A model generated the notes under the pieces. It searched no databases. It saw nothing but the letters and a program-made list of their open reading frames with translations, and was not told the DNA's origin. Shown in pieces: positions 10,441 through 52,847 of a stretch of 64,000 nucleotides of DNA. A program made the position numbers and the translations under genes. Source of the DNA: a virus (taxonomy: Duplodnaviria; Heunggongvirae; Uroviricota; Caudoviricetes); the IMG/VR virus record IMGVR_UViG_3300027770_000034; one strand, given 5' to 3'. The first letter of the stretch is position 1, and the number at the start of each line of letters is the position of its first letter.

Positions 10441-12593
<2,153 letters not shown>

Positions 12594-12594
<1 letters not shown>

Positions 12595-14522
12595 TGGCTA
12601 ATGTAATTATATATCCACAAGGAAATGGTAGTATAACTGACCCATATGTGATGATGGACGACGGTACTGCAAAGATGGCGCTTGATGTTCAAAGTGGTCA
12701 AATTGTAATGTCATCTTCAACAAATGCTAGTTCAACTACAATTGCCAATACTATTATTTCAAGTGGTACGTCAGTAACAGGCAACTTATTTGTTGGTGGT
12801 ACCAAAATGATTGATAATACAGGTGTTTGGGTTGGTCCAACAGCTGGAATTAAAGGGGGTCAAGGTTCTCAAGGAGGACAAGGAGCACAAGGGGCAACAG
12901 GTTCTCAGGGTGCTACAGGTAATCAAGGGGCTCAAGGTGGTCAAGGTTCTCAAGGAGGACAAGGAGCACAGGGGAACATAGGTAACACAGGAGCCCAAGG
13001 TAATATAGGAGCTCAAGGTAGTACAGGAGCTCAAGGTTCGCAAGGGGCTCAAGGGGCTGCAACAGGAGCTCAAGGTAACACAGGAGCTCAAGGAGCTCAA
13101 GGTTCTCAAGGGGCTCAAGGAGCTTCACAAGGTGCTCAAGGTGCTCAAGGTAATACAGGAGCTCAAGGGGCTCAAGGGGCTCAAGGTGCTTCACAAGGTG
13201 CACAGGGTAATGTAGGTAATACAGGAGCTCAAGGTGCTCAAGGTGCTCAAGGTGCCTCACAAGGAGCCCAAGGAAATACAGGTAATACAGGAGCACAAGG
13301 AGCTCAAGGAGCCCAAGGTGCTTCAACAGGAGCTCAAGGAGCTATAGGTAATACAGGTGCTCAAGGTGCTCAAGGAGCTCAAGGGGCGTCAACAGGAGCT
13401 CAAGGAGCCCAAGGTGCTCAAGGTGGTACTGGTTCACAAGGTGCTCAAGGTGCTTCAACAGGGGCACAAGGAGCTCAAGGAGCACAAGGTGGTACTGGTT
13501 CACAAGGAGCTCAGGGTGCTGCAACAGGAGCTCAAGGAGCCCAAGGAGCACAAGGAGGAAAAGGTTCACAAGGAGCTCAGGGTGGTTCAACAGGTGCTCA
13601 AGGTGCTCAAGGAGCTCAAGGTGGTGGAGGTTCAACAGGTGCTCAAGGTGGTTCAACAGGAGCTCAAGGAGCTCAAGGAGCACAAGGAGGAGGAGGTTCA
13701 ACAGGTGCTCAAGGTTCTGTAACAGGAGCCCAAGGTGCTCAAGGTGGTGGAGGTTCAACAGGTGCTCAAGGTGGAAATACAGGAGCTCAAGGAGCACAAG
13801 GTGGTGGAGGTTCTGCAGGTGCGACAGGAGCTCAAGGTTCAACACCAGGTGCACCAGGAAATCAAGGAGCACAAGGCTCAACACAAGGAGCAACAGGTGC
13901 TGCGGGAAGTACTACAGGAGCTCAAGGTTCACAAGGTGGGGGAGGTCCAACAGGAGGTCAAGGAGCCCAAGGTTCTCAGGGAGGTGTAGGAGATGGTGGG
14001 AATACAGGCGCCACAGGTCCTACGGGTCCTCAAGGCTCAACAGGAGCTCAAGGAGGTGGTGGTCCACAAGGTGCTCAAGGAGGTCCAGGTGGTCAAGGTC
14101 CTCAAGGAGCTCAAGGTTCAACAGGACCTCAAGGTGCTCCAGGACCTCAAGGTGCTCAAGGTACTACAGGTCCTCCATCTGACATGAGACTGAAAGATAA
14201 TATCAAAAAAATTGATAATGTTTATTCTAAAACAAAAAGTGTTGAAGGTGTTAGTTTTATATGGGACCATGAGCATACAAAAATTAAAGATGACAAGAGT
14301 ATTGCAGTACAAGAAGCATTTAAAGGGCCAGCGATTGGTTTAATTGCTCAGCAAGTAGAAAATGTGGTTCCTGAATTAGTATTTACTGATGATGATGGAT
14401 TTAAATCAATTGAATATGGTGCGATGGTAAGTCTTGGATTTGGTTCAATACAAGAACAACAAAAAATAATTGATTCTATTTATCAAAGAATAAACAAACT
14501 TAAAGAATTAATAGGTGGCTGA
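12594..14522 (+). CDS. collagen-like tail fiber protein with C-terminal intramolecular-chaperone (Peptidase_S74) domain
   Basis: G-X-Y repeats, then [16 protein letters not shown]...GVSFIWD...[16 protein letters not shown]. Coupled to its neighbours (ATGG overlap). Confidence 0.8.
12840..14170 (+). repeat. collagen-like codon-periodic nucleotide repeat
   Basis: Same repeat class as in fiber gene 1. Confidence 0.9.
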
Positions 14523-16368
14523 AAATATAATAATAACTCCAGCGTCGGGTAAATTTGATTTTTATGATACTGCTAGTACGGTAACTACTTTGGTTATTGA
14601 AACAGGGTCAGTTAAATTTAAAAGAGGAGCAACAACTTACTTGGCTTTTAATTCAACTCAGCCAACAATCACAATTCCAAGTGCTGATTTAAGACTAGGT
14701 ACGTCTTTAATTAATACTTTTGGAACAATTATAGATAGTACAGGATGGAAAGGAGCCGCTCAACCAACAGGACCTCAAGGTAATACAGGAGCTCAAGGTA
14801 ATACAGGTAATACAGGTGCTCAAGGAGCTCAAGGTAATACAGGTAATACAGGTGCTCAAGGTAATATAGGTAATACAGGTGCTCAAGGTAATACAGGTGC
14901 TCAAGGAGCTCAAGGTGGTACAGGTGCCCAAGGTTCAACAGGTGCCCAAGGTTCAACAGGAGGACAAGGCTCTCAAGGAGGACAAGGTGCTCAAGGTGGT
15001 AAAGGTGCTCAAGGTTCAACAGGAGGTCAAGGTGCTCAAGGAGCTCAAGGAGGTACAGGTGCCCAAGGAGCTCAAGGTTCAACAGGAGGTCAAGGAGCTC
15101 AAGGAGCTCAAGGTGGTACAGGTGCTCAAGGTGCCCAAGGAGGAACAGGAGGTCAAGGAGCCCAAGGAGCTCAAGGAGGACAAGGAGCTCAAGGTGCTCA
15201 AGGAGGTACTGGAGGTCAAGGTGCTCAAGGTGCTCAAGGAGGACAAGGAGCCCAAGGAGGTAAAGGTACGACAGGAGGTCAAGGAGCTCAAGGTGCTCAA
15301 GGTGGTGGTGGAGCAATTGGAAACCAAGGAGCACAAGGAGGTCAAGGAGCTCAAGGTGCTCAAGGTGGTGGAGGTGCTACAGGTAACCAAGGTGCTCAAG
15401 GTGGACAAGGTTCACAAGGTACTGCAGGTGGTGGCGGAGCAACAGGTAACCAAGGAGCACAAGGAGGTCAAGGAGCCCAAGGAGCCCAAGGTGGTGGCGG
15501 AGCAACAGGTAACCAAGGAGCACAAGGAGGTCAAGGAGCCCAAGGAGCCCAAGGTGGTGGAGGAGCAACAGGAGCCCAAGGTTCACAAGGTGGACAAGGT
15601 TCACAAGGTGGTGGAGGAGCAACAGGAGCCCAAGGTTCACAAGGTGGACAAGGTTCACAAGGTGGTGGAGGTTCAACAGGAGCCCAAGGAGCTCAAGGTT
15701 CACAAGGAGGTCAAGGTTCACAAGGTGGACAAGGAGCTCAAGGAGGACAAGGTGCTCAAGGTTCACAAGGAGGACAAGGGTCTCAAGGTCCCGCTGGCGC
15801 AACAGGTGTTCCAGGTGGTTCACCAACAGGTGCTACTGGACCAAGAGGTTCACAAGGAGGGCAGGGAGCTCAAGGTGGTGGAGGACCAACAGGGGCACAA
15901 GGTTCACAAGGTGGAGGAGGTGGACAAGGAGCTCAAGGTGGTGGAGGTCCTCAAGGTGGACAAGGAGCTCAAGGTGGTGCAGGTCCCCAAGGAGCTCAAG
16001 GTAACCAAGGAGCTCAAGGATTAATTGGTCCTACAGGTCCTTCAGACATTAGATTTAAAAAAGACATTAGGCTTTTAAAAGATTCAATAAAGAAAATTAA
16101 AAAAATTAGAGGAGTTAGTTTCTTTTGGATTAAAGACGGTGAAAATCCTGATATAACAAAAAGAGATATTGGATTTATCGCTCAAGAATTGAAAGTAGCA
16201 TTACCTGAGGTAGTAGTTGGAGAAGAACCAAAATACCTTACTGTAAAATATCAAGATATAGTGGCACTTTGTATTGAAGCAATTAAAGAACAAGCATTTG
16301 TAATAGAAACAAGTTTAAATAAGTTAGAAAAATTAGAATTAATAGCAAAAGAAAAGGGACTAGTTTAA
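14515..16368 (+). CDS. collagen-like tail fiber protein with C-terminal intramolecular-chaperone (Peptidase_S74) domain
   Basis: G-X-Y repeats, then [15 protein letters not shown]...GVSFFW...[15 protein letters not shown]. Confidence 0.8.
14760..16030 (+). repeat. collagen-like codon-periodic nucleotide repeat
   Basis: Same repeat class as in fiber gene 1. Confidence 0.9.
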
Positions 16369-29629: not shown

Positions 29630-29702
29630 CGTGAGGTAGAGCAGTGGTAGCTCGGAAGGCTCATAACCTTTAGGTCGCGAGTTCGAATCTCGCCCTCGCA
29701 AC
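29630..29702 (+). tRNA. tRNA-Met (CAU anticodon), initiator-like C1:A72 mismatch
   Basis: Cloverleaf read by hand. Acceptor CGTGAGG/CCTCGCA has a C1-A72 mismatch. D arm GAGC-AGTGGTA-GCTC. Anticodon stem GAAGG/CCTTT with loop CTCATAA. T arm GCGAG-TTCGAAT-CTCGC. No encoded CCA. Confidence 0.85.
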
Positions 29703-35078: not shown

Positions 35079-35501
35079 ATGTCAATTAAAGTAACTTTAA
35101 CTGAAAAAGAAATCCTTGATACACCAAACGATGCTATGTTGGGTGAGTTAACAAGAAACAAATACTGGCAAGCCAGAAGGGACCACGAAGGACCTCAATA
35201 TGATGACGAACACTTCGCTATGGTTATCGGAGATGACGGTCTTGTTAAGTCTATAATTCGTCCTTATAGGTGTTCTATCTGTGGTGGGGACACTTCAGAA
35301 GTTGAATATGATTATTTGGTTGGTTATGACCATTTGGGTTGTGTTCTTAAAGAAGAATCAGAAAGACCTGATAATTTTGACAAATGTGTTATCTGTGGAA
35401 AAGAAACACCATACCTACGTTCTACTCACATTGACTTAAGAGAAGGTTATGTTGAGGGCGGAGGACAAGGATGTTATCAACCAAACATTTGTGGTAAGTA
35501 A
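35079..35501 (+). CDS. zinc-ribbon hypothetical protein
   Basis: Two CxxC pairs, RCSICGGDT and DKCVICGKET. Confidence 0.5.
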   Translation: MSIKVTLTEKEILDTPNDAMLGELTRNKYWQARRDHEGPQYDDEHFAMVIGDDGLVKSIIRPYRCSICGGDTSEVEYDYLVGYDHLGCVLKEESERPDNFDKCVICGKETPYLRSTHIDLREGYVEGGGQGCYQPNICGK

Positions 35502-36070
35502 TGGGTTCGGGTATACCAGGGTATAACATATCTCAAAAATATAAATGTTTTTGGGTAGCTCCAAGTAGAACAGGAAGTAGAACCGTTGCGCAGATTTTAA
35601 CTCATTATGGTTTTAAATTTAATGGTGAACCTGTTTTTTATTATGAATCTTACAATTACAGTCACATCACCACAGATGTAAATCAATATCCAGATTATGA
35701 TTTCATCTGTAATGCGAGAAATCCTTATGGTAGAGTTTATTCTCATTTTCAAAATTACGGTGATAAGTTCAAACTTAAAACTAAAAGTAATTTTAGGGAG
35801 TACGTTGAGATGAAAATGTGGAAAGAAAATAGTCTACATTATCCAGTCTTAACAAAAAAACCTGACTATATTCTCAGACTTGAACACCTAAAGGAAGACT
35901 TAATGAAGATACCTTTTATTCTTGATAAGTTAACCGAAAGACAGTTAGATTTATATTTGGAACATGGGAAAACCCTTGAACCTTGGGAACCTCATTATGA
36001 CGATGATATTAAAGAAATTGTATATGAGGACTTCAAAGACCATTTTTATTTTTTTAATTATGAAAAATAA
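35501..36070 (+). CDS. PAPS-dependent sulfotransferase-like protein
   Basis: 5'-PSB-like loop WVAPSRTGSRTV (P-x-R-T-G-S). 3'-PB-like ARNPYGRVYS (R-N-P plus Ser at position 8, as in RNPKDVAVS). Paralog of 45926..46573. Confidence 0.6.
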   Translation: MGSGIPGYNISQKYKCFWVAPSRTGSRTVAQILTHYGFKFNGEPVFYYESYNYSHITTDVNQYPDYDFICNARNPYGRVYSHFQNYGDKFKLKTKSNFREYVEMKMWKENSLHYPVLTKKPDYILRLEHLKEDLMKIPFILDKLTERQLDLYLEHGKTLEPWEPHYDDDIKEIVYEDFKDHFYFFNYEK

Positions 36071-37421: not shown

Positions 37422-37428
37422 TTCAAAA

Positions 37429-37449
37429 ACCCCACTTAGGGGTTTTTTC
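37429..37449 (+). terminator. Rho-independent terminator
   Basis: CCCC ACTTA GGGG plus T6. Confidence 0.7.
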
Positions 37450-37550: not shown

Positions 37551-38000
37551 ATGAAGAAAAAATTTTTGTTGTTTTTTGCTATCGTATGTTCGCTAGTATC
37601 GTTCGGACAAAACCACAAACAGGGATGGGATGTCTCAGTGGGACCGACATTATTTGCACCGATGGCAAAGAACGTTGATTGGAACTCCAAGGCTTGGGGT
37701 CAAACTGTGAAATTCAATAAGAATAACATGGTTGTAACTTTAGGTTTTATGCAGGACAAGAACAATTTTGTTGTTGCACCTGTGTTAGTTGGGGGTCGAA
37801 AGCACCTTAATCATAACCTATATTTAGGTCTTGATGCTGGTGTTACTTTTTTCCACGGTCAAAAGGGACAATTTACTTATGTTCCTTCCCTTGGTTACAA
37901 GATAAACAAAAAATGGTGCTTAGAACAATCACTTCTAAGGACTGTTAAGGATGGTAAGACTTCCAACCGTGTAGGATTTGGATTGCTTTACAATCTTTAA
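37551..38000 (+). CDS. secreted or outer-membrane protein with Bacteroidetes-type signal peptide
   Basis: MKKKFLLFFAIVCSLVSFGQ signal peptide. Alternating hydrophobic pattern and a C-terminal aromatic residue (..LLYNL) suggest a small beta-barrel. Confidence 0.5.
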   Translation: MKKKFLLFFAIVCSLVSFGQNHKQGWDVSVGPTLFAPMAKNVDWNSKAWGQTVKFNKNNMVVTLGFMQDKNNFVVAPVLVGGRKHLNHNLYLGLDAGVTFFHGQKGQFTYVPSLGYKINKKWCLEQSLLRTVKDGKTSNRVGFGLLYNL

Positions 38001-38133: not shown

Positions 38134-38142
38134 AGTAAAAGA

Positions 38143-38167
38143 CCCCCGATTTTCGGGGGTTTTTTAT
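38143..38167 (+). terminator. Rho-independent terminator
   Basis: CCCCCGATTTTCGGGGG plus T6. Confidence 0.75.
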
Positions 38168-38187: not shown

Positions 38188-39186
38188 ATGAAGTATGTAA
38201 TCTCAGAAAAACAACTTAAAACATTTTTAAATGAGGGTAAGGAACCATCCACTCCAATTATTTTAAAACTGTTCAAAGTATTAGACGAAGAGAAGAAGAA
38301 AAAGAAAAAAAGAGCTGAGATTCTTGAGGTGATTGAAAATTTATCACCATACATGAATATACCTGCTGATTATTCGTTGTATCTGTTAGAGTTATATCTT
38401 TTAAACTACAGAAAGGATGGGGACTATTCAGGATTAACAAAAGATAATTTTGTTGACCCAAGAAAACAACAAGGTAAAACTACCTCAAACACAAAAGCAA
38501 ATTTATATACTGTTGCTCAAATGCCATTCAAAGGAAATAATCTTGTCGGACAGTGGAGAAAAGATTATAATGGTAATCCTTATTATGAAGTTGTTTCTTA
38601 CAATTGGTACCCTGTTTACCTATTCAAAGACGATAAGTGGTATGAAGTTACTGGTAGATATTCATCTTCAACATCAAAACAAATGAATAATGCAAATCCT
38701 GTTGAATGGAGTGGTGAGTTACAAGAGGTGGTTTATTTATTATCACAAGAAGAGATGAAGATGTTAAAACAAGGGGCTACTCATGAGGAAGTAATGAAAC
38801 ATAAGTTAAAGAAACTTAAAGAGTTTGAGCCAGAATTAACCAAAAGAAAGAAAACTGCAAAAGTTTATAAATGGCACGGAGAAGCTGAAACAGCCAACGC
38901 AAATATTAAATTTAAAATTAAATCAGTTGAAGAAGAAGGTGATAAGGCGATTGTTACAGTTGATATTCTTGACGTAGTTCACAGGGGAGATGATGGAGAA
39001 GAACCTACCCCACAAAACTATTTGAAAGGGGAAATGAAGGGAATGAATAAAGAAATTGCTGAGGAGAAAGTTAAAGTTAAAATTATGGAGATTCTTAGAG
39101 ATTACATGGCAACAAGATTTAGACAGAATGGTGAAGACCCACCAATACAAAACATATTTTTCAAATATAATCATTTAAAAAAATAA
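38188..39186 (+). CDS. hypothetical protein with conserved N-terminal motif
   Basis: N-terminus MKYVISEKQLKTFL. 332 aa. Confidence 0.5.
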   Translation: MKYVISEKQLKTFLNEGKEPSTPIILKLFKVLDEEKKKKKKRAEILEVIENLSPYMNIPADYSLYLLELYLLNYRKDGDYSGLTKDNFVDPRKQQGKTTSNTKANLYTVAQMPFKGNNLVGQWRKDYNGNPYYEVVSYNWYPVYLFKDDKWYEVTGRYSSSTSKQMNNANPVEWSGELQEVVYLLSQEEMKMLKQGATHEEVMKHKLKKLKEFEPELTKRKKTAKVYKWHGEAETANANIKFKIKSVEEEGDKAIVTVDILDVVHRGDDGEEPTPQNYLKGEMKGMNKEIAEEKVKVKIMEILRDYMATRFRQNGEDPPIQNIFFKYNHLKK

Positions 39187-39191
39187 TTAAA

Positions 39192-39217
39192 ACCCTCAAT
39201 TTGATTGGGGGTTTTTT
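39192..39217 (+). terminator. Rho-independent terminator
   Basis: CCCTCAATTTGATTGGGGG plus T6. Confidence 0.65.
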
Positions 39218-39245
39218 ATTTCTTATCATTGTAAAAAATAAAATT

Positions 39246-39449
39246 ATGACACCACATTTACAAGAACTAATAGACAACAACGAAGTATCTGAAATAGAAA
39301 TTGTTGAGTTTTTATCTACATTAAAAAAACTTTCCAAGAACAATGTTATGGATAGTAAAAATTTCCAATTGGTGTTAGACCATTTTGGTTTGAAAGAGAA
39401 AGAAGGATGGATTAAATTTGGTGATGATGTCAAATATAAATTAGACTAA
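39246..39449 (+). CDS. hypothetical protein
   Basis: Start moved past the terminator T-run (MTPHLQELID...). Confidence 0.45.
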   Translation: MTPHLQELIDNNEVSEIEIVEFLSTLKKLSKNNVMDSKNFQLVLDHFGLKEKEGWIKFGDDVKYKLD

Positions 39450-39778
39450 TGACACACCATAAAAGACATCAACAGATGATGTTTGATATTTTAAACAATT
39501 TTGACTTTCAAAAGGTTCACGACACCATGAAATGTCTTAACTGGACTTGGTACCCAAAAGGTATTCCAACAGCGGATTATATTGTATTTAGTGCTCGTGA
39601 AAAGATTGAGTCGGTAATCAAAAATTGTTTGTTAGATGCTAAACCAGACCAAGAATATTTTGTATCAAGTGGTGGATTAAAGGCAACTGCAATTAAAGAT
39701 GACTATGGACAAATTACTTTTCTTGAATTAGAATTTATATTAACTAGTTGGGAATTGAATGACCCTTATGAAATATGA
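39449..39778 (+). CDS. hypothetical protein
   Basis: 109-aa ORF coupled to its neighbours (ATGA overlaps). Confidence 0.45.
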   Translation: MTHHKRHQQMMFDILNNFDFQKVHDTMKCLNWTWYPKGIPTADYIVFSAREKIESVIKNCLLDAKPDQEYFVSSGGLKATAIKDDYGQITFLELEFILTSWELNDPYEI

Positions 39779-41022
39779 AAACAAAAAAACCAAGTGCAAT
39801 AGTTTACGGATGGTATAAAGAAGGCGAAGAGATATTAATCTCTGACATTTATTTTGAAGAAGGTTTAGAGGATGAAGTTGTTGTTTACGCTCTCCCATAT
39901 ACTAACGATGTTGTTGGTGATTTTTCAAAATATCAACCCGACCTTATCATTTCGTTTTTTGATGAGATTAATGTTCCGCACTATTATTTAAAACAACTCC
40001 ATATTCATTTTGATGAGATGCATGGGGATAATGTATTAGCAAATATAATTGTTTGCCAAACTGTTTTTAGACATACAAAAGTTATTAGACCAAGATTTTC
40101 AGTCTTTACTCCAACATATAAAACAGGAGAAAGAATCAAAAGAACTTATCAAAGTTTGGTTAATCAAACATTTTCTAATTGGGAATGGGTTGTTGTTGAT
40201 GATTCTCCTGATGACGAAACTTGGAAAATTTTACAAGAGATTTCCAATTATGATTACCGTGTAAAGTTACACAAAATATATCCAGTATCAGGTGGTAATG
40301 TTGGACTTGCAAAACACAGGGCGGCAATGCTTGGTGACGGTGATTGGTTGGTTGAGTTAGACCACGACGATTATTTAATTAGCACTTGTTTAGAAACCTG
40401 TAATGACGCCATCTTGAAACATCCTGATGGGGGATTTTTATATACAGATGTATGTGAACTTTATGAGGATGGTGAGATGAAATCATATGACCATGATTGG
40501 TCAGGTAATTGGTATGGAAGACCTGACAACTTTTTTGATTTTGGATATGCGGGACATAGTTGGGTTAATGCGGATGGAAAAGATTACTTATCTCATTGGT
40601 ACCCCGATATCAACCCACTAACGATTAGATTCAACATCTCAATGCCAGACCACGTAAGAATGTGGGAACGTAACCTTTATCATCAAATCGGTGGACATAA
40701 TAAAAATACACCTGTTGCAGATGATTTGGAAATGATTATTAGAAGTTTCTTACACACACGATTTATTCACGTAAAACGTATGTTATATTTACAATACAAC
40801 AATAGAAATAGTACCGTTGATAATAACGCACAAGATATAAACCGAAGAGCAAGATTAATAAGAGATTATTATGATATTGCAATTCACAATCGTATTACTG
40901 AATTAGGGTTTGAAGATTGGTGTTGGAATGAAGATAGGCAACATTCACATAAATTCCAAAACCACCAACCTGAAAAAAGATTTTACGATAAAGAAGAAGT
41001 AATGAATTACATTTATGAATAA
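39775..41022 (+). CDS. family 2 glycosyltransferase
   Basis: PRFSVFTPTYKTGERIKRTYQSLVNQTFSNWEWVVVDDSPDDETW is the classic GT2 N-terminal signature, with DxD LDHDD. Confidence 0.8.
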   Translation: MKTKKPSAIVYGWYKEGEEILISDIYFEEGLEDEVVVYALPYTNDVVGDFSKYQPDLIISFFDEINVPHYYLKQLHIHFDEMHGDNVLANIIVCQTVFRHTKVIRPRFSVFTPTYKTGERIKRTYQSLVNQTFSNWEWVVVDDSPDDETWKILQEISNYDYRVKLHKIYPVSGGNVGLAKHRAAMLGDGDWLVELDHDDYLISTCLETCNDAILKHPDGGFLYTDVCELYEDGEMKSYDHDWSGNWYGRPDNFFDFGYAGHSWVNADGKDYLSHWYPDINPLTIRFNISMPDHVRMWERNLYHQIGGHNKNTPVADDLEMIIRSFLHTRFIHVKRMLYLQYNNRNSTVDNNAQDINRRARLIRDYYDIAIHNRITELGFEDWCWNEDRQHSHKFQNHQPEKRFYDKEEVMNYIYE

Positions 41023-42172
41023 GAAAACCAAAATATGTTTAAACGCAATGGTTGGCAATGAAGCCAAGACCATTCTAAGAATGCTAGAGTCAGTGGCTCT
41101 TCACATAGATTATTGGGTCATCCAATGCAATGGCAAAGAAGATAATACAAGTCAAATTATTAACGAATTTTTTGACGAACAAGGAATTCCTGGATTTACT
41201 TATGAAACTGATTGGAATTATCCAGGATTTAATAGAGACCACACTCTTCAAGAAGCACTTAAAGCTGACCACGGATGTGATTGGATTTTAAGAATGGATG
41301 CTGATGAGAGACTTCACGTTGATGAGGATTTTGATTGGTCATTACTTGATGATACATCAGTACAGAGTTATAATATGGGCGCTGAGGCTGGAGATACAAA
41401 ATATTTCAGAACATGGTTTTGGAATAGTAAGTTACCATGGTTCTTTCAACATGACAAAAGACACGAAACAATTCATTTACCTGAAATTGGTGAAGGGTTC
41501 CAAAGAAATAATATGCCTTGGGGATTTAGACACAAGGTATCACAAGATGGTGAGACTTGGCACGTACCAAGAAAGTTTTTGAATGATGCTTTAGAATTAG
41601 AAAAAGATAAAGTTGTTGGGTATAAAGTTTTAGAAGATTATTATCATTTGTGGTATATTGCTAAAAGTTATGCCGATAGTTATGGAAATCCAGATGAATT
41701 ACCTTTTGGTAAAATTCATTCTGATGAATATGCCAGACGTTCAATATGGTACTACGAAAGATTCTTAGAATTAACACATGATTGGAGTAATTCAAAAACT
41801 GCTAAAGGTAAAGACGAAATGTGTTATTATGCGTTGATTATGATGGCACATGCACATAGTTTTATTGGAAATATAAAAGAAGCTGAAGAACATTTTTTAT
41901 TGGCTGAACAATTTCAACCTGAAAGAAATGAACACTTGGTTTACTTGTGTATCTTTTTAGAAAATGAGGGAAGACAAAATGATATGATGCAATATATTGA
42001 CAAAATGTTACAATCCGAAAGAGTAAATCCGTTTCCAAATCTAAGTTTTTTAATTGAAAACAGGGCTTATTATAATACAGGAGATTATCTAATTAAACTT
42101 AAAGAAAAAATTCAAAAAAAATCCGAAGAGTTTTCAATTAATTTAGATTCCATTACTTTTGATTTCAAATGA
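41015..42172 (+). CDS. GT2-like glycosyltransferase with C-terminal TPR-like region
   Basis: N-terminus KICLNAMVGNEAKTILRMLESV resembles the ISLCMIVKNEE signature of TPR-containing GT2 enzymes. C-terminal helical-repeat region. Overlaps neighbours by 8 and 4 nt. Confidence 0.55.
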   Translation: MNKKTKICLNAMVGNEAKTILRMLESVALHIDYWVIQCNGKEDNTSQIINEFFDEQGIPGFTYETDWNYPGFNRDHTLQEALKADHGCDWILRMDADERLHVDEDFDWSLLDDTSVQSYNMGAEAGDTKYFRTWFWNSKLPWFFQHDKRHETIHLPEIGEGFQRNNMPWGFRHKVSQDGETWHVPRKFLNDALELEKDKVVGYKVLEDYYHLWYIAKSYADSYGNPDELPFGKIHSDEYARRSIWYYERFLELTHDWSNSKTAKGKDEMCYYALIMMAHAHSFIGNIKEAEEHFLLAEQFQPERNEHLVYLCIFLENEGRQNDMMQYIDKMLQSERVNPFPNLSFLIENRAYYNTGDYLIKLKEKIQKKSEEFSINLDSITFDFK

Positions 42173-43284
42173 TTTTAATGAAAAAACCATATGATTACTT
42201 AATAGTTGGAGCGGGACCTTATGGTTCCGTTTCTGCGTATGAATTAACCAAGAGAGGTAAGAAATGTTTGGTCATAGATAAACGTGATGTTATTGGTGGT
42301 AATTGTTATACTGAAAACGTAAACAATATTCATGTTCACAAATACGGAGCACACATATTTCATACCAACGACAAATATATTTGGGATTACGTAAATCAGT
42401 TTGCCGAATTTAAACAATATACACATAATGTTATTGCGAATTACAAAGGAGAAATGTACACACTCCCATTTAATATGTGGACATTCAATCAATTGTGGGG
42501 TGTTAAAACTCAAGAAGAAGCCGAAGCAATCATTGAAAAACAAAAATACAAAGGTAAAATTCAAAACCTTGAAGACCAAGCAAGGTCAATGGTTGGCGAT
42601 GATGTATACGAAAAACTTATCAAAGGGTATACAGTCAAACAATGGGATAAGCCATGTTCAGAGTTACCACCATCAATCATCAAAAGACTCCCAGTAAGAT
42701 TTACTTGGGATAGTAACTACTTCAACGACAAGTATACTGGGATGCCTGTTGGGGGTTATACTCAAATATTTGAAAAGATGTTAAATTGTTGTGAGGTTAA
42801 GTTGGGTGTAGATTATTTTGAAAATAGGGATTATTATGATAGTCTTGCCGACAAAGTTATCTACACAGGACCAATTGATAGATATTTTGATTACCAGTTT
42901 GGTAAGTTAGAATATAGGAGCCTAAAATGGGAAACAGAAATACTTGAGAAAGATAATTTCCAAGGAGTTCCCGTGGTAAACTATACTGACTTAAAGATTT
43001 CATATACAAGAATATTAGAACATAAGTGGTTTGACCATCAGAACCAAAAGGGTACAATTATTAGTTATGAATATCCTGCCGCTTACGATGGTAAGAATGA
43101 ACCATATTACCCTATTAGAGACGATAAAAACACTCAGGTCTATACCAAGTATCAAGAACTAACTAAACCTCTTAAAAACGTTTATTTTGGGGGTAGATTG
43201 GCGACGTATGTTTATTATGATATGCATCAAATAATTGCTCAGGCATTAAAGATGATAGGGCACCTTGACGAATCTGAAAAATAG
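42169..43284 (+). CDS. glf: UDP-galactopyranose mutase
   Basis: YDYLIVGAGPYGSV (FAD Rossmann GxGxxG), KCLVIDKRDVIGGNCYTE, IHVHKYGAHIFHTNDKYIWDYV and LPFNMWTFNQLWG parallel Glf along its whole length. Confidence 0.9.
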   Translation: MILMKKPYDYLIVGAGPYGSVSAYELTKRGKKCLVIDKRDVIGGNCYTENVNNIHVHKYGAHIFHTNDKYIWDYVNQFAEFKQYTHNVIANYKGEMYTLPFNMWTFNQLWGVKTQEEAEAIIEKQKYKGKIQNLEDQARSMVGDDVYEKLIKGYTVKQWDKPCSELPPSIIKRLPVRFTWDSNYFNDKYTGMPVGGYTQIFEKMLNCCEVKLGVDYFENRDYYDSLADKVIYTGPIDRYFDYQFGKLEYRSLKWETEILEKDNFQGVPVVNYTDLKISYTRILEHKWFDHQNQKGTIISYEYPAAYDGKNEPYYPIRDDKNTQVYTKYQELTKPLKNVYFGGRLATYVYYDMHQIIAQALKMIGHLDESEK

Positions 43285-43308
43285 ACTATATTTTAAAAAA
43301 AAAATAAC

Positions 43309-43749
43309 ATGACAATCAAACAAGCCTTAAAGTACAAGAATAAACTTGTATCTAAAATGAATATTGAATTTAACAGAGCTCACCAATACAATTCAGTTGA
43401 GGATGGAGAAAAAAGACCATACTCTGCCAGTGATTCACTTTCAAAATATTTTGAATTGAGTAATGAATTGGTTGAATTAAAAACCAAATTACATAAAGCA
43501 AACGCTGAGGTTTATGATAAGATATTTCTTTTATCTGAACTTAAATCAAGAATTAGTAAGTTACAAATTTTAGATTGTAATGAAGGTAAAGTTTCTGATA
43601 GATTCAGTCGTATACATGGAGACGCTCCTGTAGTTAAAACTGCTCAAATTACAATCTTAGAAAGAGATATGTTGGTTCAAGAAATTGAGTCAAAAATTGA
43701 AGAAGTTCAAGAAGAATTGGACTTACATAATGCAACTACTGAGATTTAA
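43309..43749 (+). CDS. coiled-coil hypothetical protein
   Basis: 146 aa with heptad-like K/E-rich segments. Confidence 0.45.
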   Translation: MTIKQALKYKNKLVSKMNIEFNRAHQYNSVEDGEKRPYSASDSLSKYFELSNELVELKTKLHKANAEVYDKIFLLSELKSRISKLQILDCNEGKVSDRFSRIHGDAPVVKTAQITILERDMLVQEIESKIEEVQEELDLHNATTEI

Positions 43750-43964
43750 TATATTGGGGTTAGGTTTAAAGGAAAATTGTTTATTGATTGTTCGCTTCAT
43801 GTGAACTTTACAACATATAATCTGAAAAATGTGATGCAAGACATTGATTCGTATTCAAACTTCAACAGTCAACATTTCAAGTTTCATCATTCTATTCTTT
43901 TAAAACTCATTCAAACTTAAACTTTTGAACTTTTTACTTAACCCTTTTTTTCCTTTCTTTATTC

Positions 43965-44390
43965 ATGATATTTATAATCATGAAACTCGTTCTAAAAAAT
44001 TCAAACAAATTATTTGACACAACTCAAAATGAGACTGTTAAAGAGTTTGTTAAATTTATCAGAAAACAATTACCCCTTCAAAAAGACACCACTGTTACTT
44101 TTTTAGAAAAACGTGACCAATCAATGACTACAGGCGTTAGGAGACCTAATAGTGAAATTTTTGTGTTGACCTCCAAAAGATTATTAATTGATGTGTTAAG
44201 AACTTTAGCCCACGAATGGGTACATGAATACCAACATCAAAAAATGGGACTTGAGGACGACAAACCTGTGCAGGATATTGGTGGTAAAGTAGAAAACATG
44301 GCAAATGCTTTGGGTGGTATTATGGTAAAAAAGTTTGAAAAAGAGTTCCCTAAATATGAAAACGCATTATACGGAGAACATGAATCTTAA
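43965..44390 (+). CDS. SprT-like HExxH zinc-metallopeptidase-like protein
   Basis: RTLAHEWVHEYQH motif. Confidence 0.45.
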   Translation: MIFIIMKLVLKNSNKLFDTTQNETVKEFVKFIRKQLPLQKDTTVTFLEKRDQSMTTGVRRPNSEIFVLTSKRLLIDVLRTLAHEWVHEYQHQKMGLEDDKPVQDIGGKVENMANALGGIMVKKFEKEFPKYENALYGEHES

Positions 44391-44994
44391 CGAACAAATC
44401 TCAAGAATCAGAGGATTAATTTATGAGTTGGCACCACATTCAAGTGGGGTTCAAGAATTTATTGCTAAAGTCCAAGAGAAACCAGAACTTTTGAAACATA
44501 TGAATTTCAGAAACATAGAAGATTTATTAGATTATATTGACAACGCTAATTACGAAGAGTTTTCTCAATTAAGAGATGAAGTTAATCATTTTATTAGTAG
44601 AAGAAAAAAATACTTCCAAAGTGAAATGGATGAGTTTGAAAGGGCTGCACAAGATTTAAGTAGAGATGAAGGAATTGAAATATCTGTTAATCAATTATTA
44701 GATGCGTTTGAAAAATCCAAAGAAGTTAAAATATCTAATGATGTTTGGAGTAGACTAGAGAATACTGAATCTAATCAAATCAAGAAAGGTGAAATAAATA
44801 AAGTTATTGCTTTAGCCAAACAATATAACAAACAACATCCAAAAGAACTTAAGAAGGCATTATTAAGTGGAGATTACAGAAGACCACTTATCTTAAAGTT
44901 TGGTGATAGATATCATTTAGTTGCTGGTAACACAAGATTATGTACTGCAGCAGCTCTTGGAATACAACCACAAGTTTTAATAGGTGAAATTTAA
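44380..44994 (+). CDS. ParB-like nuclease domain protein
   Basis: C-terminal HLVAGNTRLCTAAALGI matches the ParB/Srx GxxR..A motif. Start placed at the internal ATG (MNLNEQ...). Confidence 0.55.
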   Translation: MNLNEQISRIRGLIYELAPHSSGVQEFIAKVQEKPELLKHMNFRNIEDLLDYIDNANYEEFSQLRDEVNHFISRRKKYFQSEMDEFERAAQDLSRDEGIEISVNQLLDAFEKSKEVKISNDVWSRLENTESNQIKKGEINKVIALAKQYNKQHPKELKKALLSGDYRRPLILKFGDRYHLVAGNTRLCTAAALGIQPQVLIGEI

Positions 44995-45278
44995 TTATAA
45001 GGTTCAAAAATAAGAGAACATTCCTCATCTTCAAGAATAATTCTTTCGGCTTCTTCTTCTCTTAAAGCAATTGTTGATTCAACTTGACCTGAATTACTTA
45101 ATAGATTTACAATCCAAAGACCTGCTTGGTGTTTAGTTAACTCAATAAGACTTCCTGGCATAAGTCCCATCTCCATAAGCCTTAATCTCATACACACCTT
45201 ACAATTTTCACATTCAATTTTTTCAGGAACATTTTTAATAAGAAATATTTGTCCTGCGTTTTGGTTTTTTAAAATCAT
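44991..45278 (-). CDS. FeoA-domain (SH3-like) protein
   Basis: RLRLMEMGLMPGSLIELTKHQ...STIALREEEAERIIL parallels FeoA (R..L.SLGMLPGS...V.R......I......SLVLRK.DLALLEV). Confidence 0.55.
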   Translation of the reverse strand: MILKNQNAGQIFLIKNVPEKIECENCKVCMRLRLMEMGLMPGSLIELTKHQAGLWIVNLLSNSGQVESTIALREEEAERIILEDEECSLIFEPYN

Positions 45279-45333
45279 CCTTAATAAATATAATTCATTT
45301 GAAATATAGGAAAAGTTTTCTTATTATTGTAGT

Positions 45334-45699
45334 ATGAAGTACAGAACAAGAAAACTTATTAAACCAGAAGACTTAAACCCAAGAAGAACATTGTTTGGCG
45401 GAAAGGTTCTTCAATGGATTGATGAAGAAGCGTCCATCTTTGCAATATGTCAATTGAATAGTCCAAATATAGTGACAAAAGCAATGTCGGCAATAAATTT
45501 TGTTTCCACGGCAGTTGTTGGTGATATAATTGAATTTGGGATGGAACTTGTTAAAGTTGGAAATACATCAATAACTATGGCTTGTGATGTTAGAAACAAA
45601 ATAACAAAACAATCTATTGTAAAAATAGATGAAATTGTTTTTGTACTTTTAGATGAAAACGGAAAACCTACACCTCACGGAAAAAATAAAGAAATATGA
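45334..45699 (+). CDS. hotdog-fold acyl-CoA thioesterase
   Basis: DLNPRRTLFGGKVLQWIDEEASIFAI...IVTKAMSAINFVSTAVVGDIIEF matches the acyl-CoA hydrolase (BFIT/COG1607) signature. Confidence 0.7.
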   Translation: MKYRTRKLIKPEDLNPRRTLFGGKVLQWIDEEASIFAICQLNSPNIVTKAMSAINFVSTAVVGDIIEFGMELVKVGNTSITMACDVRNKITKQSIVKIDEIVFVLLDENGKPTPHGKNKEI

Positions 45700-45929
45700 A
45701 AGAATTAGACTTACACGGATTATCACATGAAGAAGTTTGGGATGTTGTTGAAAACTTCGTACTAATGAACTCAGAAGAATTACCTTTAAAAATTATTACA
45801 GGTAATTCAGACAGAATGAAAGAGATTGTTACAGGAGTGTTGGACTCTTATGACTACGTGTATGAAACACCTGCACATAACGGAGGAGAAATAATTGTTT
45901 TAGAAGATAGAGATACAATATTTGATTAA
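45696..45929 (+). CDS. Smr domain protein
   Basis: ELDLHGLSHEEVWDVVENFV......LPLKIITGNS parallels Smr (LDLHGL...EA...L..FL..A...G.....IIHGKG). Confidence 0.7.
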   Translation: MKELDLHGLSHEEVWDVVENFVLMNSEELPLKIITGNSDRMKEIVTGVLDSYDYVYETPAHNGGEIIVLEDRDTIFD

Positions 45930-46573
45930 CTTTTCCAAGAGTCTTTATCATATCCAAACAGTTCAAATGAATCTGGATGATTATAATATACTAAATCGGC
46001 TAAAGATTGGTCATAGTATTTTTTCCAATAATCTCCTCCCTCATTAATTGAATTGTTCAATCTTATTTTGGTTAAAGTTTCCAATTCGCCTGACAAATTA
46101 AATCCATGGTTGGGAACAAATGGTAATTTTAACCAATCTTCGTATAAATGTTCTAATCTTATAATATAATCAGGTTTTCTTTGATGAAAACATTGACAAC
46201 AACCGTCAACATCAAATGGATTTTGCATCATATTTTCAACCCTAGATTTCAAAAATTGATAAATGAATGAAAAATCATTATGTTTACTAAATTCACCATC
46301 ATTTATACCTGACCTTGAAATAATCATTGAATAAGGATTTCTTACTGATATAACAAATTTATAATCCCAATGATTCTCAAAAAAATTACAAGTGTGATTA
46401 TGTCTAACTCCTGTTTTAAAATTAGATAATTTTTTTGTTTCCAAATTTAAATCTGCAGATTGAAAACCCAACATATCCAAAATAGTGGTGAAATGAGTGG
46501 ACCCAGTTCTTTCAGGAGTCCAACAAAAAAATTTGTATTTTTCAGAAATATTTATCGGTTTAATATGATTCAT
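45926..46573 (-). CDS. PAPS-dependent sulfotransferase-like protein (paralog)
   Basis: FFCWTPERTGSTHF (P-x-R-T-G-S-T), SVRNPYSMIISRS (R-N-P plus Ser at position 8) and YIIRLEHLYEDWLKLPF parallel 35501..36070. Confidence 0.6.
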   Translation of the reverse strand: MNHIKPINISEKYKFFCWTPERTGSTHFTTILDMLGFQSADLNLETKKLSNFKTGVRHNHTCNFFENHWDYKFVISVRNPYSMIISRSGINDGEFSKHNDFSFIYQFLKSRVENMMQNPFDVDGCCQCFHQRKPDYIIRLEHLYEDWLKLPFVPNHGFNLSGELETLTKIRLNNSINEGGDYWKKYYDQSLADLVYYNHPDSFELFGYDKDSWKS

Positions 46574-51155: not shown

Positions 51156-51430
51156 TGAAACCAATATACAGAATAGTTAAACACACATATTACAAAGAGT
51201 GTAATGTTAAAGGAGAACACTATACCGTCCAACGTTATAAAAAATTCTTATGGTGGAAATATTGGTCCACATTAACTCAAACAGATTGTTCGTGGGGAGA
51301 TTGTTATAAAGCGGATATAAAGTTTGATACAGAATCAGAAGCAATATATGCAATCAAGAAGTTAGAGAATGGAAACCTTGCACAAGGATGGACAGAAGAA
51401 ATATCATCTGTATTAGACTTTAACAAGTAG
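51155..51430 (+). CDS. hypothetical protein
   Basis: 91 aa. ATAATG coupling. Confidence 0.45.
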   Translation: MKPIYRIVKHTYYKECNVKGEHYTVQRYKKFLWWKYWSTLTQTDCSWGDCYKADIKFDTESEAIYAIKKLENGNLAQGWTEEISSVLDFNK

Positions 51431-52171
51431 TTCCCACTTATAATCTGAGGTAAGAACAATCGCTGTAAAGTTTTCAACCCAATCACCTGAATTATAATAT
51501 TGGATTCCATTAATCTCTTTCATTACTGGAATATGGATATGGCCACAGATAACGCCATTACATGATTTTCTTTTGCCGTACTGAACAGCATTCTCTTCAA
51601 AGTCATTGATAAAACTCAATGCTTTTTTAAAGTTTTCTTTAATTCTTTTGGAGATACTATAATAAGGAAGTTTTCTCCACTCTCTATATTTGTTATAGAT
51701 TGTATTCAACCTTAGAGCCAGGTCATAACCCATTGAGCCAATCTGAGTAAGTAATTTAAACTTGGATGTAAAGATATCAATTTGGTCACCATGAAATACA
51801 AGATATCTTCTATTGTTGAACACATCATCTCCCATCCATTCTTTAACATCAATAATATATTCATCTGCGAATTGTATATTGCCTATTTCCATACCAAAGA
51901 ATTCACGGATATCATCGTCATGATTCCCACGAAGATAAATCACGGGAACATGACGAGATATATCTAATATCTTGGTAATGACTTTTGTATGTTTATTTTT
52001 CCATTTGCTACCACGTCTAAGTGCATCAAAGTCAATAATGTCACCATTTAATATTAGAAGGTCGGTCCTCATGGAATCAAGGAAGTCCAATATCTTTTGT
52101 GGTTTGCAATCTTTCATGCCCAAATGAAGGTCGGACATAATAACGGTTTTATATCCAGTAGTTGTGGTCAT
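51413..52171 (-). CDS. LpxH-like calcineurin-type metallophosphoesterase
   Basis: IMSDLHLG, LILNGDIID, IYLRGNHD, LVFHGDQID, VICGHIHIP and YNSGDW parallel the LpxH motif series DLHL / GDLFE / GNRD / HGD / GHTH. Confidence 0.7.
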   Translation of the reverse strand: MTTTTGYKTVIMSDLHLGMKDCKPQKILDFLDSMRTDLLILNGDIIDFDALRRGSKWKNKHTKVITKILDISRHVPVIYLRGNHDDDIREFFGMEIGNIQFADEYIIDVKEWMGDDVFNNRRYLVFHGDQIDIFTSKFKLLTQIGSMGYDLALRLNTIYNKYREWRKLPYYSISKRIKENFKKALSFINDFEENAVQYGKRKSCNGVICGHIHIPVMKEINGIQYYNSGDWVENFTAIVLTSDYKWELLVKV

Positions 52172-52847
52172 TCTTAAAAAATTCAGGATTGTTTTTATTG
52201 ATATAAGATAAAAAGGACATCTTCATCATATACAATAGACCTTTCTTTTTAAAGCGTCTATCTGTTGTATATATCTTATGTTTTGACACATGAAACTTAT
52301 CAGGAGATATCTTCATGCTCAAATGAAAGTCTTCGGCAAATTTATCATCATTAACAAATCCACCGACCTTATTGAATTCCGATATGTCAAAGAGCATAAA
52401 ACCACCAATGGCACATGGAGCACTCCAAATGGTAATGTTTCTAAAGAATTCAAAGATGGGGAAGATAAAAGAATACTTACCTCTACATCTGAACCTACAA
52501 GTTAACAAATGTTTCTTACTGTCGTTCATATAGTTAATCACCTCATCAATAGTGTTAACGTCAACAAGAAACATATCAGCATCCAAGAATAAAACATAAG
52601 GGGTGGTACATAACGAAGCACCGTTATTTCTGGCAATGCTCGGAAGACCACCATCAGCAATGACGATATCTAAGTTCTTGTATTTCCCCGAATTAACAAT
52701 CTCAATAGTATTATCGTCAGAAGAATCACAGATTATAACTTTAGTTCCGTTTATATAATGTTGTTTGTTTAAATGACCGAGAGTAACATCAATTAAGTCA
52801 CTCTCATTTTTGGTGGGGATAACCACAGTAAGAAAATTTTTAATCAT
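52149..52847 (-). CDS. family 2 glycosyltransferase
   Basis: LTVVIPTKNESDLIDVTLGHLNKQ...KVIICDSSDDNT and DxD LFLDAD. Coupled to the LpxH-like gene. Confidence 0.75.
   Translation of the reverse strand: MIKNFLTVVIPTKNESDLIDVTLGHLNKQHYINGTKVIICDSSDDNTIEIVNSGKYKNLDIVIADGGLPSIARNNGASLCTTPYVLFLDADMFLVDVNTIDEVINYMNDSKKHLLTCRFRCRGKYSFIFPIFEFFRNITIWSAPCAIGGFMLFDISEFNKVGGFVNDDKFAEDFHLSMKISPDKFHVSKHKIYTTDRRFKKKGLLYMMKMSFLSYINKNNPEFFKNDHNYWI

Follow-up and report, generated by a model that had tools for sequence, protein, structure and literature searches.

A conserved cassette of UDP-galactopyranose mutase and two glycosyltransferases in a freshwater jumbo phage, and its possible role in virion protein glycosylation

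The cassette and its proposed function

We analyzed a 64,000-nucleotide stretch of DNA from a tailed virus of the Caudoviricetes (IMG/VR record IMGVR_UViG_3300027770_000034; this whole stretch is called the window below), focusing on a cassette for two family-2 glycosyltransferases (GT2a and GT2b) and a UDP-galactopyranose mutase (UGM, or Glf). The window is part of the genome of a freshwater jumbo myophage of about 320 kb. Our best reading of the cassette is that it glycosylates proteins in the cytoplasm, probably virion proteins, with a glycan that contains galactofuranose (Galf), and we give this reading a probability of roughly 0.5. Three translationally coupled genes had been proposed for positions 39775-43284 by a reading of the letters made without database searches (the sequence-only reading). 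All three are indeed found there on the plus strand, GT2a and GT2b overlapping by 8 nt (41015-41022) and GT2b and UGM by 4 nt (ATGA, 42169-42172):

39775..41022, plus strand: GT2a, 415 amino acids (aa), Pfam PF00535
41015..42172, plus strand: GT2b, 385 aa, GT-A domain followed by a tetratricopeptide repeat (TPR) domain
42169..43284, plus strand: UGM (Glf), 371 aa, TIGR00031

From the enzyme identities, the operon structure and the conservation described below, we infer an acceptor and a biological role as follows. UGM would take UDP-galactopyranose from the host pool and convert it to UDP-galactofuranose. GT2b, with its GT-A and TPR domains, would recognize a protein acceptor and add the first sugar, whereupon GT2a, a soluble GT2 enzyme, would extend the glycan as an elongating transferase. 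The acceptor would most likely be a virion protein, the leading candidates being the collagen-like tail fibres and the neck region, and a sugar coat on the particle could affect adsorption, stability or recognition. Since the GT2b core is found in relatives together with GT-B transferases, sugar-type methyltransferases, oxygenases resembling prolyl 4-hydroxylase (P4H) and DUF6445 proteins, the glycan, and possibly a hydroxylated attachment site, would vary by lineage.

The UDP-galactopyranose mutase

The mutase gene was initially described as full-length and well conserved, and the profile searches agree with this description. The protein scored 415.7 bits against the TIGR00031 equivalog model (cutoff 303.75; residues 8-363), and it matched the GLF domain PF03275 with E = 3e-77 and NAD_binding_8 with E = 4e-23. 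With E. coli Glf (PDB 1I8T; 467 bits) it shares 57% identity. Every active-site position that we checked carries the residue of E. coli Glf and is invariant in 22 lineages of the clade; on this ground a pseudo-enzyme with a mutated active site, which the sequence-only reading had considered, was rejected. The positions checked, which we take from the E. coli and Klebsiella structures to be the relevant ones, were E. coli H56, Y151, W156, R170, Y181, R278, E298, Y311, Y346 and D348. His65 and Lys172 are present in the window's protein and throughout the 22 lineages; in the UDP-N-acetylgalactosamine-type mutase (UNGM) of C. jejuni these UGM residues, His and Lys, are reportedly replaced by Arg59 and Arg168. 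Both positions that distinguish UDP-Gal from UDP-GalNAc specificity are thus predicted to be of the UGM type. As far as sequence allows such a conclusion, the enzyme is a UDP-galactopyranose mutase that converts UDP-Galp to UDP-Galf.

Phage-borne glf was initially thought to be rare, which overstates the case: it is uncommon but already known. Homologues were found in 90 of 50,697 phage records, several of them annotated as such, and the carriers include Rhizobium, Agrobacterium and Aeromonas T4-like phages, S. suis prophages, a Lactobacillus phage and faecal contigs. A PHROG family of phage glf exists as well (phrog_9677), which the window's UGM matches at 455 bits. None of the UGM-bearing phage records, including the Rhizobium and Aeromonas phages, has a GT2b homologue.

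The two glycosyltransferases

For GT2a, the GT2 identity assigned from the letters is borne out by a Pfam PF00535 (Glycos_transf_2) score of 66 bits against a cutoff of 23.3. The protein has an N-terminal domain of about 100 aa, followed by the GT2 domain with an invariant DHDD (DxD) motif, and its profile matches in the Protein Data Bank (PDB) are chondroitin and heparosan synthases, TarP and TarS. The match to TarP, at 1e-8, is one among many generic GT2 matches.

GT2b scored just below the Pfam GT2 cutoffs (21.3 and 25.5 bits against 23.3 and 27.5), and its assignment as a GT2-TPR protein therefore draws on other evidence, with which the initial label accords. In an AlphaFold2 (AF2) model with a mean confidence score (pLDDT) of 75, an N-terminal GT-A fold is followed by a C-terminal helical-repeat domain; the GT-A domain covers residues ~1-175 with an invariant DAD motif, and the TPR domain residues ~187-371. 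The profile of the GT2b family matched consensus TPR proteins with E = 2e-12 and GmaR with E = 7e-5, and several close relatives of GT2b have Pfam TPR_1/TPR_2 matches. A Foldseek search against the PDB placed SunS/ThuS (7MSN, 7MSK) on top, over the full length and with E = 6e-12, the next class following at 1e-5. The top matches were all GT2 enzymes, and TarP was not among the top 50. By sequence, the closest solved structure is GmaR. The model and the profiles together confirm for GT2b a predicted GT-A domain and TPR domain in one soluble polypeptide, which is the layout of SunS/ThuS/GmaR.

GT2a and GT2b are strongly acidic throughout the lineages, with a pI of 5.1-5.5 and a net charge of about -20. 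No membrane segments were found in any of the five enzymes examined, which include GT2a, GT2b and a third transferase, GT2c, described below. In the BFVD database, fold relatives of GT2b occur in phages and in many giant viruses. Among the 50,697 phage records, GT2b matched only Tunturiibacter phage Tunturi_5, a jumbo phage, and three huge-phage metagenome records, at 26-33% identity.

Conservation and modular organization of the cassette

To describe conservation we used 24 dereplicated lineages from the first 63 loci, and a second set of 113 loci that were retrieved by a profile search with GT2b as the query. The order GT2a-GT2b-UGM is colinear in 19 of the 24 lineages, while the flanks turn over. 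Pairwise divergence of GT2b and that of UGM are correlated (r = 0.80, Mantel p = 0.0005). Codon adaptation, GC content and GC content at third codon positions (GC3) of all three cassette genes differ by at most 0.8 SD from those of the other genes in the window, and no flanking repeats were found around the cassette. Host-like codon usage and flanking repeats had been named at the outset as signs of a recent passive pickup; in view of the colinearity, the co-divergence, the phage-like composition and the lack of such repeats, a pickup of this kind was rejected. The cassette is old, vertically inherited, resident and under selection.

Among the 113 loci, for which GT2b itself was the query, GT2b was counted in 111, GT2a in 82 and UGM in 77; GT2b is the invariant core of the module. 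Its partners in relatives are GT2a, UGM, GT-B transferases, methyltransferases, prolyl-hydroxylase-like oxygenases and DUF6445 proteins. In the window's clade the arrangement is GT2a-GT2b-UGM (arrangement A). Arrangement B reads DUF6445-GT2a-GT2b-small open reading frame (ORF)-GT1-GT9-like, followed by the neck protein, a 257-aa ORF and the large terminase. In arrangement C (loci L047-L054, L071-72, L078, L082-85 and L092-99) the order is RecA-exo-DnaB-RNR-Trx-GT2b-UGM-2OG (2-oxoglutarate) oxygenase-MazG-Mom-Mom-GT4-PolB. Arrangements D and E are GT2a-GT2b-DUF6445 or DUF6445-DUF6445-GT2b-UGM-GT2a with P4H-like genes nearby, and arrangement F is DUF6445-GT2a-555-aa ORF-GT2b-UGM-GT9-like. Three lineages have a fusion of GT2a with a class-I SAM methyltransferase, one locus (L040) encodes a 978-aa fusion of GT1 with FkbM and class-I methyltransferases, and two lineages have GT2a-GT2b without UGM. 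Since GT2b stays constant while its partners change, the simplest reading is that GT2b is acceptor-specific and that the other enzymes supply or tailor the glycan.

An oxygenase (family c37) stands directly upstream of GT2a in three lineages (L007, L026, L060) and between GT2b and UGM in a fourth (L011). It matched Pfam 2OG-FeII_Oxy_3 with E = 4e-19, and its PDB matches are HIF-PHD, EGLN and P4H; in the same PDB search no similarity to TET/JBP or AlkB was found. Another oxygenase, c94, belongs to the same Pfam family. In one sub-clade, that of arrangement C, a pair of Mom-family genes (PF25680, E = 1e-45 to 2e-48; 12997-14536 in L052, with equivalents in L047, L054, L071, L078 and L085) stands with MazG, a GT4-like gene and PolB just downstream of GT2b-UGM, which suggests a DNA-modification system in that sub-clade.

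The commonest immediate neighbour of GT2b in distant relatives is the DUF6445 gene (~192 aa; L064 694-1281, L040 8179-8757 and 32 other loci), which is absent from the window. Its product has invariant residues H84, D86, H167 and R181, an HxD...H...R pattern as in 2OG/Fe(II) dioxygenases. Its assignment as such a dioxygenase was considered and left unproven, as alignment with the P4H-like family by hhalign gave a probability of 1.4% and a PDB profile search returned nothing.

Evidence for a protein acceptor and competing explanations

The best full-length solved folds for GT2b, SunS and ThuS, are peptide glycosyltransferases of the GT-A plus TPR type, and this is the first point in favour of a protein acceptor. 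GmaR is a flagellin O-GlcNAc transferase with an N-terminal GT domain followed by TPR (PMC9638930), and for FlmG it was demonstrated experimentally that the TPR domain binds the protein substrate (PMC7591256). The glycosyltransferase island directly abuts the T4-type neck protein (830-850 aa in relatives) and the large terminase in about 16 loci, and the GT2b relative of Tunturi_5 is flanked by a nucleotidyltransferase and a tail-fibre module. Islands with several glycosyltransferases together with methyltransferases (FkbM, class I), and possibly sulfotransferases, point to a complex glycan. We also count for a protein acceptor the cassette-linked oxygenase c37, which is of the protein prolyl-hydroxylase type, the acidic and soluble nature of the transferases, the fold relatives of GT2b in giant viruses and large phages, and the age of the module and the selection on it. 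A precedent exists in mycobacteriophage-encoded glycosyltransferases that, as cited in PMC12619734, glycosylate capsid and tail proteins (Freeman et al. 2023).

Several observations weigh against this reading. Neither a glycocin precursor with its exporter nor a flagellin gene was found in the window or the loci. The low Foldseek TM-score of GT2b to SunS (0.39) probably reflects a different orientation of the domains, and the AF2 model of GT2a was poor (pLDDT 54) and unusable. The window has no oxygenase, and its collagen-like fibres lie 24 kb from the cassette. One large sub-clade has GT2b-UGM amid RecA, DnaB, RNR and PolB, beside the two Mom-family genes. GT-A-fold DNA glycosyltransferases have been documented in phages (bioRxiv 10.1101/2023.12.21.572611), and DNA glycosylation is the sole function that has been put forward in print for a phage UGM (PMC13326640). 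It should be noted that in jumbo phages the neighbourhood of a gene is weak evidence for either reading.

Phage DNA as the target is a serious alternative, which the sequence-only reading had missed; we rate it as unlikely. UGM would here supply UDP-Galf with which GT2b and/or GT2a glycosylate a hydroxylated or hydroxymethylated pyrimidine in the phage DNA, protecting it against host nucleases. The DNA of Rhizobium phage RL38J1 contains a galactose-proximal hexosylated 5-hydroxycytosine, for which UGM was proposed as the source of UDP-Galf (PMC13326640). GT-A-fold DNA glycosyltransferases are moreover widespread in viromes, often near polymerases, helicases and sugar-modifying genes (bioRxiv 10.1101/2023.12.21.572611). 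The gene order of arrangement C also counts for a DNA target, and other freshwater lineages of the clade have dCMP deaminase, NUDIX and kinase genes nearby. A clustering of the cassette with replication and nucleotide genes is seen in that one sub-clade, but neither in the window nor in the lineages where neck protein and terminase adjoin. A Pfam scan of the 76 ORFs of the window, about 20% of the genome, returned no ThyA-like hydroxylase or hydroxymethylase and no TET/JBP-type 5mYOX enzyme; a tblastn search with E. coli ThyA as the probe, covering the window plus the first 63 loci, was likewise empty. The published core genes of the moraphages include dUTPase but neither dCMP hydroxymethylase nor dCTPase (PMC12619734). 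Also against a DNA target are the prolyl-hydroxylase type of the cassette-linked oxygenases, the TPR protein-binding domain of GT2b with its resemblance to peptide glycosyltransferases, and the strong acidity of both transferases. Finally, UGM occurs without a GT2b homologue in the Rhizobium and Aeromonas phages, and alone, with no adjacent glycosyltransferase, in RL38J1; UGM would thus be a donor-supply module whose transferase partner differs from phage to phage.

The cassette could alternatively remodel a glycan of the host cell envelope by adding Galf side chains to a lipid-linked intermediate of O-antigen, capsule or another envelope glycan on the cytoplasmic side of the membrane, leading to superinfection exclusion or preventing progeny from re-adsorbing to lysing cells. 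This fits the nearest characterized relatives of GT2a (K4CP, heparosan synthase, TarP, TarS and GalT1), the PHROG labels 'GtrB-like O-antigen conversion', with weak scores of only 20-31 bits, and the several secreted or outer-membrane-like proteins encoded in the window. It is also in keeping with UGM being typical of O-antigen and capsule loci. The enzymes are free of membrane segments, and the 64-kb window has no flippase, polymerase, ABC exporter, priming phosphoglycosyltransferase, GtrA/GtrC or integrase. The TPR architecture of GT2b is unlike that of transferases acting on lipid-linked glycans, the lineage has the look of a lytic T4-type jumbo phage without signs of lysogeny, and the module is core and vertically inherited across hosts with presumably different surface glycans. 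We therefore regard seroconversion or remodelling of host polysaccharide, as offered by the sequence-only reading, as poorly supported and improbable.

We hold it to be still less probable that a host rather than a virion protein is the acceptor, a cytoplasmic host protein being glycosylated, possibly after hydroxylation, for takeover or anti-defence in a manner comparable to effector glycosyltransferases and EF-Tu prolyl hydroxylation. The evidence for a protein acceptor (the folds of GT2b, the TPR domain and c37) applies equally to this case, and one of the structures matched by c37, PDB 4IW3, is presumably a Pseudomonas prolyl hydroxylase studied with EF-Tu. Islands that combine several transferases with methyltransferases suggest a complex glycan with a structural role and not one regulatory sugar, and the island lies repeatedly beside structural genes, both of which favour a virion protein. 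Glycosylation of a phage protein, as in the earlier glycosylation idea, is accordingly the part of that idea that we favour, whereas its choice of the collagen-like fibres as acceptor draws on analogy and weak hints.

Collagen-like fibres as candidate acceptors

The window contains three tandem collagen-like fibre genes, as originally noted; both the GXY repeats and the tail-fibre PHROG matches are found:

10441..16368, plus strand: three tandem collagen-like tail-fibre genes (10441-12594, 12594-14522 and 14515-16368) encoding 717, 642 and 617 aa, with tail-fibre PHROG matches

Each fibre has 136-144 GXY triplets, with Thr at position Y in 68 (of 144, fibre 1), 24 and 27 triplets. Such GXT-rich repeats are reminiscent of BclA. 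Collagen-like ORFs lie within a few genes of the glycosyltransferase island in three loci (L040, L088 and L107), and prolyl-hydroxylase-like genes are found in or beside the cassette in some lineages. On this basis the fibres are candidate acceptors only. A full scenario would be a Galf-containing O-glycan of lineage-variable composition (methylated, possibly sulfated) on virion proteins such as the collagen-like tail fibres, with the TPR-guided GT2 initiating and a prolyl-hydroxylase-like step coming first in some lineages; in this detailed form we consider it rather doubtful.

Two further features of the fibre genes were observed. Their GC content is 44-48%, compared to 31% in the rest of the window, with a GC3 of 0.09-0.12; this very low GC3 indicates that the high GC content is forced by Gly, Ala and Pro codons and does not reflect a foreign origin. 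At the C-termini there is a segment resembling S74-type intramolecular chaperones, as judged by eye and from PHROG matches to tail-fibre C-terminal families.

Neighbouring genes and transcription signals

The cassette belongs to a co-directional run of genes that begins further upstream:

39189..39215, plus strand: terminator-like hairpin, a 12-bp stem followed by a T run, which separates the end of the preceding gene from the beginning of the cassette transcription unit
39246..39449, plus strand: small ORF, first of the co-directional run, 67 aa from ATG 39246 or 82 aa from TTG 39201
39449..39778, plus strand: 109-aa ORF (cluster c11) with an ATGA overlap with GT2a, its position kept in 24 loci
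43309-43749, plus strand: downstream neighbour c10, syntenic with the cassette
43965-44390, plus strand: downstream neighbour c14, with an HExxH motif, syntenic with the cassette
44335-44994, plus strand: downstream neighbour c17, syntenic with the cassette

The overlap of the 109-aa ORF with GT2a amounts to 4 nt, so that at least four genes are coupled. The small ORF at 39246-39449 had no family match. The same type of hairpin recurs at 37425-37447 and 38142-38160. Synteny of c10, c14 and c17 with the cassette is seen in 18-28 loci, and Pfam returned nothing for these three at E < 0.01. By eye c17 had seemed ParB-like, which would have pointed to the ParB-dependent thymidine dioxygenase system (PMC13229309); this candidate was dropped, as Pfam gave no ParB match. 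The T4 late-promoter motif TATAAATA had 15 matches compared to 8.7 expected, none of them upstream of the cassette, and was uninformative. Sigma-70-like promoter matches were at chance level only.

Other genes conserved around the cassette were seen as well. A FeoA-domain protein and a 4HBT thioesterase (44991-45699), both counted as auxiliary metabolic genes, are kept near it in several lineages. Upstream of it in most freshwater lineages stand three tandem paralogous ORFs of about 95 aa (clusters c5, c50 and c27; 32337-33198, plus strand), and in about 35 loci a 284-aa protein (33772-34626, minus strand) that has six CxxCxGxG repeats and lacks a J domain. A full DnaJ homologue, with J domain, CxxCxGxG zinc-finger region and C-terminal domain, is encoded at 2492-3412 (plus strand).

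Further glycan-related genes in the window

Four other genes of the window may relate to glycans:

35501..36070, plus strand: sulfotransferase-like paralogue (cluster c7) upstream of the cassette, with PxRTGS and RNPY motifs
45926..46573, minus strand: second sulfotransferase-like paralogue (cluster c7), downstream of the cassette, with the same motifs
51413..52171, minus strand: calcineurin-type metallophosphoesterase, Pfam Metallophos E = 2e-13, coupled to GT2c
52149..52847, minus strand: GT2c, a small soluble GT2 with a DAD motif, Pfam PF00535 57 bits against a cutoff of 23.3

The metallophosphoesterase and GT2c genes overlap by 23 nt and are conserved together in one related locus (L022). 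The coupling of a metallophosphoesterase to another GT2 at this second locus was correctly recognized from the letters, but the label 'LpxH-like' is not sustained: the two LpxH models gave 34.2 bits (cutoff 134) and 25.7 bits (cutoff 190), and the likeness is thus one of superfamily only.

In c7, PxRTGS and RNPY are the 5'- and 3'-binding motifs of sulfotransferases for 3'-phosphoadenosine-5'-phosphosulfate (PAPS). Some members have weak Pfam Sulfotransfer_1/2/3 matches (best 6.6e-5), and the PDB matches were SULT4A1 and SULT1C2 at E = 0.1-0.2. The family occurs in 19 related loci, often as two copies that flank the glycosyltransferase cassette. With low to moderate confidence, the c7 paralogues may be described as sulfotransferase-like and as possible glycan-tailoring enzymes. 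At 22715-24401 (plus strand) there is a closely packed group consisting of a P-loop kinase resembling adenosine-5'-phosphosulfate (APS) kinase (145 aa), a cytidylyltransferase-like protein (133 aa, HxGH) and an N4/N6 DNA methyltransferase; a second, Dam-like methyltransferase lies at 3618-4457. The kinase and nucleotidyltransferase pair (22715-23553) could activate a sugar or make PAPS. It is conceivable, at low confidence, that c7 and these two proteins add sulfate or other groups to the same glycan.

The phage and its host

The lineage resembles lytic jumbo phages of the T4 type. Sequence of the window recurs at 100% identity on freshwater-lake contigs of the Joint Genome Institute (JGI), GT2b relatives were found on IMG/VR contigs of 317-348 kb, and the cassette genes adjoin a T4-type neck protein and large terminase in relatives. 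A nucleotide search with positions 39000-44000 against the 50,697 phage records gave no match, so the clade has no close deposited relative there. The host is probably a member of the Bacteroidota. Secreted proteins of the window have signal peptides that end in ...FSQ, ...FGQ or ...FTQ, and a neighbour protein in relatives has a C-terminus that, by eye, is of the type IX secretion system (T9SS) kind. In a scan of 185,579 species genomes with the GT2b profile, only two relatives were found, both on phage-like contigs in Bacteroidota metagenome-assembled genomes (Saprospirales and Weeksellaceae); since both are phage contigs, they provide no cellular context from which to learn.

The signal peptides ending in Q, which are typical of Bacteroidota, belong to proteins encoded at 37551-38000, 49151-49963 and 49987-50595 (all plus strand; ...FGQ, ...FSQ, ...FTQ). 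Two of these three resemble small outer-membrane beta-barrels, and Pfam returned nothing for any of them. The window also contains a full-length GOLLD RNA at 30460-30868 (plus strand; Rfam RF02032, 328 bits against a gathering threshold of 150, model positions 1-416 of 416), which lies about 760 nt downstream of a tRNA-Met gene (29630-29702). Lake metagenomes and a Lactobacillus prophage are the known sources of this large structured RNA. A cob(I)alamin adenosyltransferase, an auxiliary metabolic gene, is encoded at 27785-28330 (plus strand; Pfam E = 6e-48). Local GC content rises up to 0.43 at 56000-58000, where ORFs overlap on both strands (56699-57242, minus; 57433-57913, plus); the region has no Rfam match and no annotation.

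Significance

The component families and the idea of virus-encoded glycosylation were already known. New in the present data are the cassette of UGM, GT2-TPR and GT2, its GT2b-centred modularity, and its near-universality in an abundant clade of jumbo phages. The module is abundant in lake and marine viromes (770-937 protein clusters per glycosyltransferase). It is compact and testable, with one TPR transferase as the fixed core and exchangeable genes for sugar supply and tailoring. Virion glycosylation is well studied in giant viruses and was recently demonstrated in mycobacteriophages, and it is unexplored in large aquatic Bacteroidota phages. Should a virion protein be the acceptor, phages would have a new route to vary their surface chemistry, and the scenario with glycosylated fibres would provide a phage counterpart of the glycocalyx of BclA or of mimivirus fibrils. 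Galf is absent from animals and is antigenic. A virion glycosylated in this way would, to our knowledge, be the first galactofuranosylated virus particle. Should DNA be the acceptor, Galf-based DNA hypermodification would extend to a new phage group and a new class of transferase. Either outcome, protein or DNA, would give a function to the 'core glycosyltransferases' of jumbo phages.

Comparison with known systems

The moraphages are aquatic jumbo phages with four core glycosyltransferase orthogroups to which no role has been assigned (PMC12619734). By descriptive traits they are like the present phage: they come from freshwater, have genomes of at least 200 kb with T4-type structural genes, DnaJ and glutaredoxin, and have predicted Bacteroidota/Flavobacteriales hosts. 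They differ in their published maximum of 307 kb, compared to the 317-348 kb of the contigs found here, and the paper that describes them makes no mention of UGM, TPR architecture or the cassette (PMC12619734).

Rhizobium phage RL38J1 and the Pootjesviridae have a phage UGM, about 45% identical to that of the window, that was likewise proposed to make UDP-Galf for a phage-specific glycoconjugate (PMC13326640). In that system the sugar acceptor in the DNA is 5-hydroxycytosine, and the pathway comprises GT-B-like transferases and a ThyA-like 5hodCMP synthase, with the UGM gene standing by itself (PMC13326640). In contrast, the UGM of the present cassette is coupled to a GT2-TPR protein and another GT2, and the searches of the window and the loci turned up no enzyme that hydroxylates bases. 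The Gtr seroconversion modules of temperate phages, which combine the membrane-anchored bactoprenol transferase GtrB with the flippase GtrA and with GtrC, are not matched, as the enzymes have no membrane segments and the 64-kb window has no flippase, GtrC or integrase family.

The glycocin S-glycosyltransferases SunS/ThuS (7MSN, 7MSK) and the flagellin O-glycosyltransferases GmaR/FlmG share with GT2b the design of a soluble cytoplasmic enzyme in which a GT domain is joined to a TPR domain for binding the protein or peptide to be modified. Identity to these enzymes is only 14-16% and the TM-score is the 0.39 given above, the catalytic domain of FlmG is GT-B whereas that of GT2b is GT-A, and GT2b is not accompanied by the glycocin precursor, flagellin or antirepressor domain of the SunS/ThuS/GmaR systems. 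Unlike all of them, GT2b is phage-encoded and coupled to UGM and a second GT2.

Mycobacteriophages of the Che8 type, in the account of them given by PMC12619734, use phage GT2 enzymes to modify the C-termini of their own capsid and tail-tube proteins in the cytoplasm. Their hosts are Actinobacteria, whereas the host of the present phage is probably a member of the Bacteroidota. We know of no UGM or TPR-bearing transferase reported for virion glycosylation in these phages.

On the favoured reading the present phage would resemble the giant viruses, in which cytoplasmic virus-encoded glycosyltransferases and sugar-nucleotide enzymes decorate the surface proteins of the virions; the fold of GT2b occurs in many of these nucleocytoplasmic large DNA viruses (NCLDV). 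We know of no Galf in giant-virus glycans, and the mimivirus enzyme is a fusion of lysyl hydroxylase and glycosyltransferase. Known cases are the mimivirus collagen hydroxylase/glycosyltransferase L230 and fibril glycans, the glycosylated capsids of chloroviruses and the collagen-like glycoprotein BclA of Bacillus; collagen-like repeats are acceptors among these systems.

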